Shown piece by piece: positions 18,771 to 59,727 of a stretch of 64,000 nucleotides of DNA. The notes beneath the pieces were generated by a model. That model searched no databases. It was given only the letters and a program-made list of their open reading frames with translations, and had not been told where the DNA came from. The first letter of the stretch is position 1. Each line of letters starts with the position of its first letter. Where the stretch lies: assembly GCF_058153355.1 (NCBI RefSeq), contig NZ_CM177019.1; one strand, written 5' to 3'. The translations under genes were made by a program, and so were the position numbers.

Positions 18771-18874
18771 ATGGACAAAAGCCCCAGGCGATATATCTAT
18801 CAACCTGAGGCTTACGTTCGAACCCAAACAATTCGAATGTTAGTCTCTTCTTTGCAGGGAGGCAAGACATGCTG
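18771..18874 (+). CDS. Mok-like leader ORF overlapping the hok start (translational coupling)
   Basis: ATG 18771 to TGA 18872-18874, overlapping the hok ATG at 18869; arrangement typical of hok/mok loci. Confidence 0.3.
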
Positions 18875-19021
18875 ACAAAATATGCCCTTGTGGCAATCAT
18901 CGTACTGTGTTGTACAGTACTGGGATTCACGCTGATGGTAGGCGACTCGTTGTGTGAGTTGAGTATCAGAGAACGTGGTATGGAGTTTAAGGCAGTTCTC
19001 GCTTACGAACCGAAGAAGTAG
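18869..19021 (+). CDS. Hok/Gef-family type I toxin (HokE-like membrane peptide)
   Basis: 50 aa [50 protein letters not shown]; close to my recollection of K-12 HokE (not checked against a database); below the ORF-track length cutoff. Confidence 0.7.
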
Positions 19022-19259: not shown

Positions 19260-20936
19260 GTGACTTTCTTTGATTTCTGGGGAAAAACCCGACGTGGCGA
19301 GAAAGAGGGTGGCGACGATTATCACCTTCTTTGCTGGCATTCGCTGGATGTAGCCGCGATAGGCTATTTAATGGTCAAAAACAACTGTTTCGGGCTGGCT
19401 GACTATTTTCGTCAATTAGGTTTCGCTGACACGGATCAGGCAGCACAATTTTTCGCCTGGTTGTTGTGCTGGCACGATACTGGAAAATTTGCCCGCTCAT
19501 TTCAGCAACTTTACCTGCACCCACAACTCAAGGTTCCGGAAGGCGCAAGAAAGAATTACGAAAAGATCTCTCATTCAACGCTGGGTTACTGGTTGTGGCA
19601 TCATTATTTAATTGAATGTGAAGAGTTGCTTCCTTCATCTTCACTCTCTTTGCGCAAACTTAAACGGGTAATAGATATGTGGATGCCCGTGACGACCGGG
19701 CATCATGGTCGGCCTCCTGACCGTATCGATGAACTGGACAACTTTCTACCTGAAGACAAAGCTGCCGCACGAGATTTTCTCCTTGAAATCAAGGTACTGT
19801 TTCCGCTCATCGAGATCCCTACATTCTGGGATGATGACGAGGGCGTTGAACTTATAAAACATCTTTCCTGGTATATATCTGCAACCGTCGTACTCGCAGA
19901 CTGGACGGGATCGTCAACGCGGTTTTTTCCACGCGTCGCACATGTAATGGATATTAAAGATTACTGGCAGAATGCTTTAGCTCAGGCTCAAAACGCATTA
20001 ACCGTCTTTCCTCCAAAAGCAGAAACCGCACCTTTCACTGGAATTAACACGCTGTTTCCTTTTATTGAGAACCCAACACCGTTACAGCAAAAGGTGCTGG
20101 ATCTGGATATCAGCCAGCCAGGACCGCAGTTGTTTATTCTGGAAGATGTGACTGGCGCAGGTAAAACAGAAGCGGCGCTTATCTTGGCGCACAGGTTGAT
20201 GTCTGCGGGGAAAGCACAGGGTTTGTTTTTTGGCCTGCCAACAATGGCAACGGCCAATGCCATGTACGATAGGCTGGTAAAAACCTAGCTTGCTTTCTAT
20301 TCGCCACAATCCCGCCCCAGCCTGGTGCTGGCACACAGCGCTCGTTCGCTAATGGATCGCTTTAACGCATCGCTGTGGTCTGGTGATTTTGTGGGGTCAG
20401 AAGAACCGGATGAACAAGCGTTCAGTCAGGGATGTGCGGCCTGGTTTGCTGACAGTAACAAGAAGGCGTTGCTGGCTGAAATTGGCGTCGGCACGCTGGA
20501 TCAGGCGATGATGGCGGTGATGCCGTTCAAACATAATAATCTGCGGCTTCTGGGGCTGAGTAACAAAATCCTGCTAGCCGATGAGATCCACGCCTGTGAC
20601 GCTTATATGTCGTGCATTCTTGAAGGGCTGATCGAGCGGCAGGCGCGTGGCGGAAACAGCGTTATTTTGCTTTCTGCTACGTTGTCTCAACAGCAGCGTG
20701 ACAAACTCGTCGCCGCCTTTGCGCGTGGTGCAGAGGGCCAGCAAGAAGCTCCGTTGCTGGAAAAAGATGATTATCCCTGGCTGACGCATGTCACGAAATC
20801 CGATGTGCATTCGCACCGGGTAGCGACGCGCAAAGACGTTGAGCGCAGCGTGAGTGTGGGTTGGCTTCATAGCGAACAAGAGTGTATTGCGCGTATCGAA
20901 TCGGCGGTAAGGTGTTCCCCGCGCCAGCGGGGATAA
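19260..20936 (+). pseudogene. cas3: cas3 (type I-E) pseudogene: in-frame TAG at 20286-20288 and 3' truncation into a CRISPR repeat
   Basis: HD-nuclease motifs (WHSLDVAA, WHDTGKF) and helicase Walker A (TGAGKTEAAL); ORFs 19260-20288 and 20325-20936 are in the same frame separated by one amber codon; the frame ends inside the first repeat; total about 557 codons versus about 890 expected. Confidence 0.75.
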
Positions 20937-21062
20937 ACCGTCGACAATGGATAAGTTGACTTCAGGTCTGGGGAGTTCCCCGCGCTAGCGGGAATAAACC
21001 GTGCAGTACGCCTGATGACAAACCAAGCATCGGGAGTTCCCCCGCGTCAGCGGGGGAACTCC
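20912..21062 (+). CRISPR. minimal type I-E CRISPR array: 3 repeats, 2 spacers of 32 bp; last repeat degenerate
   Basis: Repeats gtgttccccgcgccagcggggataaaccg (20912-20940), gagttccccgcgctagcgggaataaaccg (20973-21001), degenerate gagttcccccgcgtcagcgggggaactc (from 21034); spacers 20941-20972 and 21002-21033. Confidence 0.85.
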
Positions 21063-31088: not shown

Positions 31089-31150
31089 ATCGGCGGAACC
31101 AGGCTTTTGCTTGAATGTTCCGTCAAGGGATCACGGGTAGGAGCCACCTT

Positions 31151-32143
31151 ATGAGTCAGAATACGCTGAAAGTTCATGATTTAAATGAAGATGCGGAATT
31201 TGATGAGAACGGAGTTGAGGTTTTTGACGAAAAGGCCTTAGTAGAAGAGGAACCCAGTGATAACGATTTGGCCGAAGAGGAACTGTTATCGCAAGGGGCC
31301 ACACAGCGTGTGTTGGACGCGACTCAGCTTTACCTTGGTGAGATTGGTTATTCACCACTGTTAACGGCCGAAGAAGAAGTTTATTTTGCGCGTCGCGCAC
31401 TGCGAGGAGATGTTGCCTCCCGCCGCCGGATGATCGAGAGTAACTTACGTCTGGTGGTAAAAATTGCCCGCCGTTATGGCAATCGTGGTCTGGCTTTGCT
31501 GGATCTTATCGAAGAGGGCAACCTGGGGCTGATCCGCGCGGTAGAGAAGTTTGACCCGGAACGTGGTTTCCGCTTCTCAACATACGCAACCTGGTGGATT
31601 CGCCAGACGATCGAACGGGCGATTATGAACCAAACCCGTACTATTCGTTTGCCGATTCACATCGTAAAGGAGCTGAACGTTTACCTGCGAACCGCACGTG
31701 AGTTGTCCCATAAGCTGGACCACGAACCAAGTGCGGAAGAGATCGCAGAGCAGCTGGATAAGCCAGTTGATGACGTCAGCCGTATGCTTCGTCTTAACGA
31801 GCGCATTACCTCGGTAGACACCCCGCTGGGTGGAGATTCCGAAAAAGCGTTGCTGGACATCCTGGCCGATGAAAAAGAAAACGGCCCGGAAGATACCACG
31901 CAAGATGACGATATGAAACAAAGCATCGTCAAATGGCTGTTCGAACTGAACGCCAAACAGCGTGAAGTACTGGCACGTCGATTCGGTTTGCTGGGGTACG
32001 AAGCGGCAACACTGGAAGATGTAGGTCGTGAAATTGGCCTCACCCGTGAACGTGTTCGCCAGATTCAGGTTGAAGGCCTGCGCCGTTTGCGCGAAATCCT
32101 GCAAACGCAGGGGCTGAATATCGAAGCGTTGTTCCGCGAATAA
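31151..32143 (+). CDS. rpoS: RNA polymerase sigma factor RpoS (sigma-38), apparently intact
   Basis: 330 aa from [22 protein letters not shown] with no internal stop; ORF-track start 31115 is an upstream extension. Confidence 0.95.
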
Positions 32144-35085: not shown

Positions 35086-35126
35086 TAAAAAAGGGCCGGG
35101 TAGAGGCTTTGCTTTACCCGGCCACG

Positions 35127-35783
35127 TTATTTGATTTTATAAAACGACAGCCGCCCGCTTTTCGGCGATCCGGTATCAATATAAATCTGGTTTGCGAACG
35201 TCTGGATGTTATCAAACATCATATGACCGAAGATAAAGCAGTCGGCGCCGTTTATTTCCTGTAACTCGCCTTTGAGCGATTTCAGTACGCGATCAACAGG
35301 CCAGAGCAATTCTCTCTCCGCTATTTCTTTGCCAAAGAGATATTCATTCCCCGGATAATCTGCATGCGCGATGACATATTTTATTATGTCGTTAGTGATT
35401 TCAACAATATGCGGAAGATTATGAAAACGTAGCAACAGGTCTATTGCTTCTTTTTGTTCCGTATCACTTAACTCAAAGAACCAGTCGCCACCGCTGGCAA
35501 GCCACATATTGCCATCGCCGGTCGCGAACGCATCCAATGCCATCGCTTCATGGTTGCCTTTAACCGATGTAAACCAGGGCTGGTTTAGCAGGCGCAGCAC
35601 GTTAAGACTCTCCGGCCCACGATCAATATTATCGCCGACAGAAATAAGTAAGTCGGTTTCAGGACAAAAAGATAATTGGTGCAGGCGGGATTGCAATAAT
35701 TGATAATCTCCATGAATGTCACCTACCACCCAGATATGGCGATAATGAGTGGTTTCAATTTTACGATAACGAATATCTGGCAT
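35127..35783 (-). CDS. pphB: serine/threonine protein phosphatase 2
   Basis: 218 aa from MPDIRYRKIET; GDIHGD and GNHE metallophosphatase motifs; ORF-track start 35921 is an upstream extension. Confidence 0.85.
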   Translation of the reverse strand: MPDIRYRKIETTHYRHIWVVGDIHGDYQLLQSRLHQLSFCPETDLLISVGDNIDRGPESLNVLRLLNQPWFTSVKGNHEAMALDAFATGDGNMWLASGGDWFFELSDTEQKEAIDLLLRFHNLPHIVEITNDIIKYVIAHADYPGNEYLFGKEIAERELLWPVDRVLKSLKGELQEINGADCFIFGHMMFDNIQTFANQIYIDTGSPKSGRLSFYKIK

Positions 35784-53763: not shown

Positions 53764-53805
53764 TTTTTCAGTAAGGAATTCAGGGAATTGAAAATCAGAA
53801 CAGGG

Positions 53806-54156
53806 ATGTGCGCTTTTTTATTTTGCTTAGTGCTTCCTACGCAGGCTACCAGCTTTACCGAATATCTGCCAATGAGTGACAGCGAATACGCGCAAAAGCG
53901 GGCGCTGAAACCTCTCCTGACTATGCCTTATTATACCGAGCAAACCTGGCATTTTAGAAAAGTGGGCGTTGCTGGCGTGACGCTTGAGAAGATGCCAAAT
54001 GAAGAGGATTACTGGCAATTAACTGCTAAAGACCGCGCCGGTAAATCCTGGAAGGTGCCTGTGGGTATGCTGGCAAATATGGCGGGCAAAGGGCAACTCT
54101 ATCGCGCCGATCTGGATCGTAACGGCATTCAGGATCTGGTTACCAAGTGCTGGTAA
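53806..54156 (+). CDS. hypothetical secreted protein (islet ORF 1)
   Basis: ORF 53788-54156 with signal-peptide-like N-terminus MCAFLFCLVLPTQA from ATG 53806; no recognised domain. Confidence 0.4.
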   Translation: MCAFLFCLVLPTQATSFTEYLPMSDSEYAQKRALKPLLTMPYYTEQTWHFRKVGVAGVTLEKMPNEEDYWQLTAKDRAGKSWKVPVGMLANMAGKGQLYRADLDRNGIQDLVTKCW

Positions 54157-54187
54157 TGGTCTGGCTCCTTATGCACATTTAATCCTT

Positions 54188-54553
54188 ATGACGTTCACGC
54201 GCGATGGTCGTCCCTGTGTCTTTGAACCCTGGGGATTCTACACCGCAAGCAAAACTGGCGTAGATGATTTGCTGGATTTGCAAGGCAATGGCCACACACA
54301 ATTGCTGGATATGCAGTTTAATTCTGGTTACTGGATAACCAGTCTGTATCAGGTAAAAGACGCCAAATGGCAACGTGTTCACGGCTGGTTTGGCAAGTTA
54401 AGCTATCCCGCGCTCACGCGTTTTACTTATACCCCCAACCGTAAACTCGTCCTCAAACCCATTGCCGGGCGTGACCCGCAAACGGAAGATTTAGCGCTGA
54501 CGCAGCGTTGTTTGATAACAGGGGATGTGCTTGATGGGGTGAATCAGAACTGA
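54188..54553 (+). CDS. hypothetical protein (islet ORF 2); possibly the C-terminal part of a frameshifted gene with ORF 1
   Basis: 121 aa ORF; its frame is open upstream to 54023, overlapping ORF 1 in another frame. Confidence 0.35.
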   Translation: MTFTRDGRPCVFEPWGFYTASKTGVDDLLDLQGNGHTQLLDMQFNSGYWITSLYQVKDAKWQRVHGWFGKLSYPALTRFTYTPNRKLVLKPIAGRDPQTEDLALTQRCLITGDVLDGVNQN

Positions 54554-54715
54554 CTTTTTGCAGAGTGGGTATGAGGATTTTGGGGGAGAATTATATCGCG
54601 CGCAAGTGTTTACATATTGTGAACTTGGATTTGGTGAGCTATAGTTTCTGAACACATAAGGATAGAACTCGCAGATGTGGCTGTTTACTTACTATAAGGA
54701 AGTTAAAACTTAAAA

Positions 54716-55027
54716 ATGCACATCATTTCGAAAGCGCCATTTGAAGAGTCTGCGCGCAAATATCCTAACGACGCTCTGGCTCTACACTCATTGTATCGGG
54801 TTATTAAGGAAACGGATTTTTCTACGCCAGAAGAAATGCGAACGGCGTTTCCCAACCTCGACAATTTTAAATATCGCAACAAATGGTACGTTCTGGATGT
54901 CGGCGGGAACAATCTTAGGGTTATTGCCTACATAAACTTTGTTAATAAGCGGTTCTTTGTGAAGCACATAACGAATCATGCCGAGTATGACAAACTGACA
55001 CGTTACTACAGAGAGAACAAAGAATGA
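54716..55027 (+). CDS. higB: HigB-family type II toxin (RelE/ParE superfamily)
   Basis: 103 aa; shares FPNLDNFKY and VGGNNLRV with my recollection of K-12 HigB. Confidence 0.8.
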   Translation: MHIISKAPFEESARKYPNDALALHSLYRVIKETDFSTPEEMRTAFPNLDNFKYRNKWYVLDVGGNNLRVIAYINFVNKRFFVKHITNHAEYDKLTRYYRENKE

Positions 55028-55443
55028 CTGCTAATGCTGCACGCGCTGTTAAAGCAACAAGAGAACTGGTCAATGCAGTCCCCTTTCTGGGAGGCAGTGA
55101 CTCAGAAGATGATTATCGTGAAGCACTGGAACTGGTCGAATATTTGATTGAAGAAGATGACACCAATCCACTTATCGACTTTCTGGCGAGCCGCATTGCA
55201 GAGTATGAAAACAACCACGAAAAGTTTGCAGAGTTCGACAAAGCCGTTGCTGCAATGCCGGTTGGCGTGGCGTTACTTCGCACGTTGATTGATCAACATA
55301 ATCTGACCTATGCGGATTTGAAGAACGAAATCGGCTCTAAATCCCTGGTCAGTCAGATTTTGTCTGGACAAAGATCCCTGACGATATCCCACATTAAGGC
55401 ACTTTCAGCCCGATTTGGCGTTAAGCCGGAATGGTTTCTTTGA
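55024..55443 (+). CDS. higA: HigA-family antitoxin (HTH, XRE family)
   Basis: 139 aa; start overlaps the higB stop (ATGA); recalled HigA-like motifs including IGSKSLVSQILSG. Confidence 0.8.
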   Translation: MTANAARAVKATRELVNAVPFLGGSDSEDDYREALELVEYLIEEDDTNPLIDFLASRIAEYENNHEKFAEFDKAVAAMPVGVALLRTLIDQHNLTYADLKNEIGSKSLVSQILSGQRSLTISHIKALSARFGVKPEWFL

Positions 55444-55488
55444 TTTTGACTGATGCCAAACGCCAGATTGCCCGATGCGCAACGCTTA

Positions 55489-56718
<1,230 letters not shown>

Positions 56719-56748
56719 CATGCCTGCAATCTGGGAAACCGGGGTAGA

Positions 56749-56779
<31 letters not shown>

Positions 56780-56792
56780 TGTCGCACGAACT

Positions 56793-56830
56793 ATGTAGGC
56801 CGGATAAGGCGTTCACGCCGCATCCGGCAC
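56793..56830. repeat. REP palindromic unit downstream of ascB
   Basis: tgtaggccggataaggcgttcacgccgcatccggca. Confidence 0.6.
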
Positions 56831-56836
56831 GTTTGC

Positions 56837-59727
<2,891 letters not shown>

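Follow-up and report, generated by a model that had tools for sequence, protein, structure and literature searches.

The gene pair and its control region

The 64,000-nucleotide stretch of Escherichia coli DNA analysed here (contig NZ_CM177019.1 of assembly GCF_058153355.1, referred to below as the window) carries, between hycI and ascB, two overlapping genes that very probably constitute a toxin-antitoxin module of the HigB/HigA family. The toxin gene comes first and is followed by a gene for a helix-turn-helix (HTH) antitoxin, the order characteristic of higBA operons that an earlier note on this DNA had pointed out. The boundaries of the two genes, taken from the list of open reading frames (ORFs) and from the raw sequence, are as follows.

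54716-55027, plus strand: toxin gene, from ATG (54716) to TGA (55027), 103 amino acids; HigB family (PF09907), SehA-type
55024-55443, plus strand: antitoxin gene, from ATG (55024) to TGA (55443), 139 amino acids; HigA-like, with a C-terminal HTH

The lengths and coordinates given in that note are exact, and the toxin stop and antitoxin start codons overlap, as it had stated, in the tetranucleotide ATGA at 55024-55027, an arrangement that fits translational coupling of the two genes. In a Pfam scan the toxin matches PF09907 (HigB_toxin) with an E-value of 3.8e-23 and a score of 82 bits against a cut-off of 27. This is its sole Pfam match at E <= 0.01, and PF05015 (HigB-like_toxin), the family of the Proteus vulgaris-type HigB, is not matched. 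The antitoxin matches HTH_3 at residues 85-138 (E 1.5e-09), and a search of NCBIfam returned no meaningful or specific family for either protein. Residues 1-100 of the toxin align to K-12 HigB in the solved complex 5IFG (chain A, E 7e-22) and residues 9-138 of the antitoxin to K-12 HigA in the same complex (chain B, E 2e-35). The N-terminal domain of the antitoxin aligns to the HigA domain described as the dimerisation and toxin-binding region, and its C-terminal part is the HTH_3 DNA-binding domain.

The toxin was modelled with AlphaFold2 from 33 sequences of its family; the model, with a mean pLDDT (predicted local distance difference test score) of 92, comprises three helices and three strands, with a further helix at the C-terminus. 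In Foldseek the model superposes on K-12/Shigella HigB (6KML_C, 5IFG_A) with TM-scores of 0.92-0.95 and a root-mean-square deviation of ~1.0 Å; the next matches, to Cami1, YoeB and RelE, reach ~0.5-0.6 only. The toxin possesses the family majority residue at every position conserved at >=90%, with the exception of position 12, where serine replaces alanine. Placement in unrelated families and loss of RelE-fold residues, the two outcomes held by the earlier note to speak against its reading, are contradicted by the PF09907 and HTH_3 matches, the 5IFG alignments and the Foldseek superposition. The two genes are a genuine pair: a chance succession of ORFs is excluded by the Pfam and 5IFG matches, by the single chromosomal copy present in 1,091 genomes and by the mostly synonymous nature of the differences between alleles, both described below.

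Upstream of the toxin gene the following control elements were located.

54608-54624, no strand assigned: predicted antitoxin operator O1, a 17-bp palindrome GTTTACAtatTGTGAAC (GTTTACA and TGTGAAC around a central tat), putative binding site called as a family-type pattern match
54617-54645, plus strand: sigma-70-like promoter with -35 TTGTGA (54617-54622), a 17-nt spacer and -10 TATAGT (54640-54645)
54683-54699, no strand assigned: weak candidate for a degenerate second operator, GTTTACttaCTATAAGG; its left half is preserved, its right half is eroded, and 6 of 10 specified positions fit the family pattern
54696-54702, plus strand: Shine-Dalgarno sequence of the toxin gene, AAGGAAG, with 13 nt between it and the ATG

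A search for palindromic operator sites in 54600-54715 had been advised as a check on the module, and the perfect palindrome O1 is what this interval yielded. It is the sole perfect match to the family pattern GTTNNCANNNTGNNAAC across the 64 kb, and its right half provides the -35 hexamer. The promoter attains 9 of 12 consensus positions in a scan that is not significant when taken alone (two such promoters found, 2.2 expected); the prediction is supported by the relatives of the module, which show the same overlap of operator and -35 together with the 17-nt spacing. When the 140-bp upstream regions of nine related operons were compared, a 17-bp palindrome, GTTNNCA-N3-TGNNAAC, proved common to their promoters. 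The palindrome is usually doubled, with the copies ~38 bp apart and flanking the -10, and in the upstream copy the right half doubles as the -35. When operators are called at a cut-off of 8 of the 10 specified positions, two sites are present in eight of the nine loci, including those of an Enterobacter phage-plasmid, four Salmonella loci, sehAB and K-12 higBA, and a single one in phage JK004. No second operator attaining this cut-off lies upstream of the toxin gene in the window; the degenerate candidate occupies -33 to -17 relative to the toxin start, and O2 of the relatives is found at about -35 to -19.

The letters of the half-sites track the lineage of the antitoxin: GTTGCCA in K-12, GTTTTCA in sehAB and GTT[T/C]ACA in the company of the HTH segment GSKSLVSQILSGQRSLT, which is the segment of the window antitoxin. 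Self-repression of the operon is proposed because the only perfect operator overlaps the -35, because this architecture is common to the nine related loci and because the half-sites follow the antitoxin lineage. Both K-12 HigA and SehB have been reported as repressors of their own promoters (PMC2814082; PMC7160566).

The Shine-Dalgarno sequence of the toxin gene is found 5 nt from the ATG in another E. coli allele (L004), relative to which the window has 8 extra bases in the alignment. The longer spacing would be expected to lower translation of the toxin, and the single good operator combined with the 13-nt spacing may reduce toxin output. The leader RNA (54652-54745) was folded in search of start-codon sequestration and displayed no significant structure (z +0.99); two inverted repeats were not retained on this account.

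Relationship of the toxin to SehA and K-12 HigB

Among characterised toxins, the nearest in sequence is SehA of Salmonella and not HigB of K-12. The window toxin shares 58% identity and 76% similarity with SehA over the full length and without gaps, compared with 39% identity in an equally ungapped alignment to K-12 HigB; SehA and K-12 HigB are themselves 41% identical. All family homologues of similar length (110 of 110) are closer to SehA than to K-12 HigB. Mutagenesis of SehA has covered Y53, R54, K56, D61, H88, Y91, K93, T95, Y97 and Y98, and replacement by alanine at eight of these residues abolishes toxicity. All ten are identical at the same positions in the window toxin, so that the set required for toxicity (Y53, D61, H88, Y91, K93, T95, Y97 and Y98) is complete. 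K-12 HigB, on the other hand, keeps four of the eight (Y53, H88, Y91 and T95) and has N61, F93, V97 and H98 at the remaining positions. The three toxins have Y53, K56, R68, H88 and Y91 in common; in the literature consulted, no defined catalytic residues of the K-12-type HigB were found. The C-terminal helix of SehA, HAEYDKLT.YYR.NKE, is nearly identical to that of the window toxin.

The activities reported for the two reference toxins differ. K-12 HigB is a translation-dependent mRNA interferase that in vivo cleaves only translated mRNA (PMC2814082). SehA is described as having neither ribonuclease (RNase) activity of its own nor codon-linked cleavage; it binds the double-stranded RNA-binding domain of RNase III and inhibits processing of the 16S leader, and its toxicity is lost in an rnc mutant (Choi et al., PMC12817084). 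Inhibition of RNase III has been reported for SehA alone.

SehA and SehB (STM4031/STM4030) resemble the window pair in their toxin-first operon, 103-amino-acid toxin, two-domain antitoxin layout and 7-3-7 type of palindrome. They differ in the half-sites (GTTTTCA instead of GTTTACA), in the number of operator sites (two instead of one) and in chromosomal position, sehAB being located in Salmonella by an esterase gene and a 329-amino-acid ORF. The window antitoxin is just 45% identical to SehB, a value matched by the 46% that it shares with K-12 HigA. Neither the neighbouring genes nor the antitoxin point to orthology with sehAB, and on these comparisons the window module is a related member of the SehAB toxin sub-lineage and not a positional orthologue of sehAB. 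The sehAB locus was recovered from Salmonella genome contigs with a partial sehB sequence, reconstructed from mutagenesis primers in the literature, as the query. A 69% identical Salmonella protein (P0030) was considered as SehA and rejected, as it lies in prophage regions and is paired with a 139-amino-acid antitoxin and so is not STM4031; P0163 and P0152, considered as sehAB, were rejected on contig context, which again indicated prophage regions. The 2013 paper on sehAB by De la Cruz is flagged as retracted and was not relied on.

The K-12 proteins (YgjN/YgjM; 5IFG, 6KML) share with the window pair the Pfam family, gene order, overlap, fold, and the architecture of antitoxin and operator, and their lengths are near-identical (104 and 138 against 103 and 139 amino acids). 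The K-12 pair is set apart by its locus between rlmG and fadH, by the operator letters GTTGCCA, by identities of 39% and 46% and, in the toxin, by residues 61, 93, 97 and 98, which are D, K, Y and Y in the window. The founding HigBA pair, that of Proteus vulgaris Rts1, is likewise toxin-first with a toxin of the RelE superfamily; its HigB belongs, however, to PF05015 and not to PF09907, and its HigA has a different order of domains (PMC7160566). SehA is 25% identical to Rts1 HigB (PMC12817084).

Locus history, distribution and mobile relatives

As annotation the module is already known and is not a new find. RefSeq labels the toxin 'type II toxin-antitoxin system HigB family toxin' and the antitoxin as an HTH protein, and the toxin of strain CFT073 is the representative of the UniRef cluster HIGB_ECOL6, 'mRNA interferase HigB', a name that was probably given by similarity only. 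A survey of the E. coli pangenome distinguishes three HigB_toxin clusters (PMC10790755). Two published experiments were considered for this locus and assigned elsewhere. The higBA knock-out in CFT073 (Norton and Mulvey, PMC3464220) employed a primer that encodes CYIREVMTHKEYD, that is, K-12-type HigB, and hit a truncated K-12-type remnant at the other locus; since the K-12-type locus was the target, the hycI-ascB module remained in that mutant. The E. coli HigB toxin of PMC4513841 came from MG1655 and thus belongs to the other locus as well.

The nearest complete genome, EC42405, is 99.7% identical to the window over the module, which lies downstream of a hypothetical gene that encodes 251 amino acids in this strain. 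K-12 higBA (b3083/b3082) is positioned between rlmG and fadH, in accord with the different locus stated in the earlier note, and the hycI-ascB spacer of K-12 measures only 158 bp and contains no genes. As EC42405 harbours both the hycI-ascB module and a K-12-type higBA, the description of the pair as a second copy holds. Its description as accessory, in the sense of a recent gain, does not, because the K-12 site is a deletion scar. Set against window positions 53764-55497, the K-12 spacer (NC_000913.3 2842415-2842572) still shows the beginning of the hypothetical gene and its final 32 bp, and from there, across an ACTGA microhomology (window 54549-54553 and 55446-55450), continues into the sequence immediately downstream of the antitoxin stop. 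The persistence of these fragments indicates that K-12 lost the islet, and argues against a recent gain by other strains.

The module is flanked in the window by the following features.

53788-54553: hypothetical gene between hycI and the toxin gene, split into two ORFs in the window
55497-56774: IS110-family insertion sequence of 1,278 bp, 53 bp past the antitoxin stop and absent from EC42405
55689-56669: recombinase ORF of the IS110 element, 326 amino acids, NCBIfam 'IS110 family RNA-guided transposase' (E 3e-75)

The product of the hypothetical gene, as read in EC42405, begins with a hydrophobic N-terminus resembling a signal peptide and has no Pfam match. The reading frame is disrupted in the window because a tandem repeat of the 8-bp unit ATCTGGTT has lost one of its copies near 54134, and RefSeq marks the same gene as frameshifted in strain C7. 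The IS110 element is inserted between ATCGGGCCT and AC within a repetitive extragenic palindromic (REP) element, with CT on both flanks; the sequence of this insertion site has been reported as the target encoded by the bridge-RNA target loop of IS621 (PMC11208160). In elements of this kind the bridge RNA is encoded at the non-coding left end, which corresponds here to ~55497-55688 and yields no Rfam match. Across 54300-57200 a search of Rfam returned nothing beyond a sub-threshold match to the REP-related naRNA4, and no bridge-RNA family.

In a population sample of 5,426 complete E. coli genomes, the region is matched in 2,508, always once and always on the chromosome. Both genes are present in 1,091 genomes, about a fifth of the total, the antitoxin alone in 1,417, and neither gene is matched in 2,918. 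The intact pair is found in many lineages, among them O145:H28, O26, O111 and CFT073. The last of these (NC_004431.1 3121577-3123222) carries the whole islet next to a deletion of the asc operon, and its toxin differs from that of the window by S12C. The few pairs of toxin alleles that were compared differ by 2-6 synonymous and 1-2 non-synonymous codons. In the antitoxin-only genomes the match is confined to the final ~30 bp of the toxin gene and what follows (window 54989-55443), and the deletion in these orphan loci has nearly the same right-hand end, inside toxin codons ~93-95. In the four that were inspected, the antitoxin gene is intact and the deletion takes out the promoter and the toxin gene, in some cases together with a portion of the upstream gene. 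Orphan antitoxin genes from three sampled genomes (L002, L003 and L005) exhibit, in comparisons between lineages, 13-14 synonymous codon differences and not a single non-synonymous one, which suggests purifying selection on the orphan antitoxin in the toxin-less genomes sampled.

Outside Escherichia the closest relatives have toxins 68-79% and antitoxins 75-81% identical to those of the window, the toxins being distributed over Klebsiella, Kosakonia, Cronobacter and Salmonella. Many are associated with mobile DNA: the Salmonella copies lie in prophage regions, Cronobacter phage JK004 encodes a toxin that is 77% identical, and relatives occur on 1,043 plasmid records, the closest (79%) on plasmids of ~90 kb that also bear phage tail genes, such as Enterobacter pJBIWA008_2. 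The antitoxins of the Enterobacter plasmid, of phage JK004 and of two Salmonella loci (L014 and L017) have an HTH segment identical to that of the window antitoxin, accompanied by the same operator half-sites. These phage-plasmid, prophage and plasmid pairs of Enterobacterales differ from the window module in being carried by mobile elements and, for the most part, in having two perfect operators that flank the -10; they are uncharacterised. PADLOC matches the toxin to PD-Lambda-2_A (E 2e-15) and the antitoxin to PD-Lambda-2_B (E 2e-14), the latter only at positions 9-115 of a 402-position profile. Component A of PD-Lambda-2 is thus a HigB-family toxin, and component B is similar to the window antitoxin in its N-terminal part; component B is far longer, however, and the window module consists simply of two genes. 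No long component B adjoins the toxin gene, whose surroundings hold the frameshifted hypothetical gene and the insertion sequence.

A few further differences were recorded elsewhere in the window. At 18869-19021, just after cysH, a 50-amino-acid ORF is located where EC42405 annotates a Hok/Gef family protein, which would be another toxin gene, of type I. Compared with EC42405, the window is without ~8 kb around 20911-21034 and 19260-20936, comprising the 3' part of cas3, casA to cas2 and the array of clustered regularly interspaced short palindromic repeats (CRISPR); the cas3 remnant is split into two ORFs and runs almost directly into iap. At 35098-35130, between rpoS and mutS, ~6 kb of EC42405 (ygbN to ygbI, threonate/tetronate utilisation) are absent. 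The rpoS frame (31115-32143) is open in the window; RefSeq records an internal stop in EC42405 and a frameshift in CFT073.

Mode of action and biological role

The locus is best explained as an intact chromosomal type II operon, self-repressed and of the HigB (PF09907)/HigA family, a paralogue of K-12 higBA with a toxin of the sehAB sub-lineage that would act in the manner of SehA, and to this explanation as a whole a probability of about 0.5 is attached. A single promoter (54617-54645) would drive both genes. A dimer of the antitoxin would bind GTTTACAtatTGTGAAC via its HTH and repress the operon, and the N-terminal domain of the antitoxin would bind and neutralise the toxin, as in the HigB-(HigA)2-HigB complex of K-12. 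Loss of the antitoxin would then set the toxin free, and growth would stop through reduced translation capacity. The SehA-like mode is preferred because of the identity to SehA, the complete set of toxicity residues and the closer resemblance of all 110 homologues to SehA than to K-12 HigB. By analogy with SehA, the chances that the toxin acts through RNase III are nonetheless put at roughly even, for the RNase III mechanism derives from one study, on a protein with 58% identity to the toxin, in which the in vitro RNase test was carried out with a toxin tagged with green fluorescent protein and with total RNA, without the ribosomes that RelE-type toxins need (PMC12817084), and because K-12 HigB displays the same fold, helix alpha4 included, and shares R68, H88 and Y91. 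Other points weigh against the proposed explanation too. RNase activity of the window toxin would be compatible with its sequence, SehB and HigA are about equally distant from the antitoxin, and the module is not syntenic with sehAB. The single good operator and the distant Shine-Dalgarno sequence could mean weakened regulation or expression, and no paper on the hycI-ascB module was found in the literature, including by protein accession and by higBA together with hycI.

The same module under the same regulation might instead produce a ribosome-dependent mRNA interferase that cleaves in the A site, as K-12 HigB does, an alternative rated at less than even odds. Membership of PF09907, the close superposition on K-12 HigB and the five residues common to the three toxins are all in keeping with it, as are the in vivo cleavage of translated mRNA by K-12 HigB (PMC2814082) and the more distant fold matches, Cami1, YoeB and RelE, which are ribosome-dependent RNases; the database name 'mRNA interferase HigB' points the same way, with the caveat that it probably reflects similarity only. 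The balance is tipped towards SehA by the gap between 39% and 58% identity, by D61, K93, Y97 and Y98, on which the toxicity of SehA depends and which K-12 HigB does not share, and by the fact that the nearer relative shows no codon-linked cleavage and depends on RNase III for its toxicity. It is far less probable that the operon is a decaying remnant, with a poorly expressed or inert toxin in an eroding region. Such erosion would account for the deletion of the toxin in 1,417 genomes, the absence of both genes from 2,918 of 5,426, the deletion scar of K-12, the frameshifted upstream gene, the insertion sequence 53 bp past the antitoxin stop, the lone operator, in contrast to the two present in eight of nine related loci, and the 13-nt Shine-Dalgarno spacing. 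It is at odds with the integrity of both ORFs, with the match of the toxin to the family majority at the conserved positions other than 12 and its retention of every residue critical in SehA, with the excess of synonymous over non-synonymous differences in the toxin alleles compared, and with the intact pair in 1,091 genomes of many lineages.

A different kind of proposal concerns the role of the module and not its biochemistry, and is compatible with either toxin mechanism: that the pair serves mainly in defence against mobile elements, by abortive infection of phages or by 'anti-addiction' against the 70-80% identical toxins of phage-plasmids, prophages and Klebsiella plasmids. The PADLOC matches to PD-Lambda-2_A and to the first part of PD-Lambda-2_B, the relatives in Salmonella prophage regions, in phage JK004 and on plasmids with phage tail genes, the HTH segment shared with several of their antitoxins and the absence of amino-acid differences among the sampled orphan antitoxins render a role in mobile-element conflict plausible. 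The E. coli locus lies, however, outside prophages and recognised defence islands, and PD-Lambda-2_B is covered over little more than its first quarter; as the main role of the module, defence of this sort is considered rather unlikely. Bolder still, and with correspondingly long odds, is the combined proposition that about a fifth of E. coli genomes, with CFT073 and the sampled O145, O26 and O111 strains among them, carry a SehA-type, RNase III-inhibiting toxin that is missing from K-12 and was left in place by the CFT073 higBA knock-out, and that in about another quarter of genomes the orphan antitoxin provides anti-addiction immunity against the homologous toxins of phage-plasmids, prophages and Klebsiella plasmids.

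As a discovery the module is a minor one, since the pair already bears labels in RefSeq and UniRef; what is added to the earlier annotation is the link to SehA, the operator and the loss of the toxin with retention of the antitoxin. The deletion of the islet from K-12 means that toxin-antitoxin work based on this strain has been blind to the module. The orphan antitoxin, invariant in amino-acid sequence in the three toxin-less genomes sampled, offers a clean natural case for the anti-addiction idea. If the SehA-like action proposed for the toxin is true, many pathogenic E. coli would carry a growth switch that targets RNase III.

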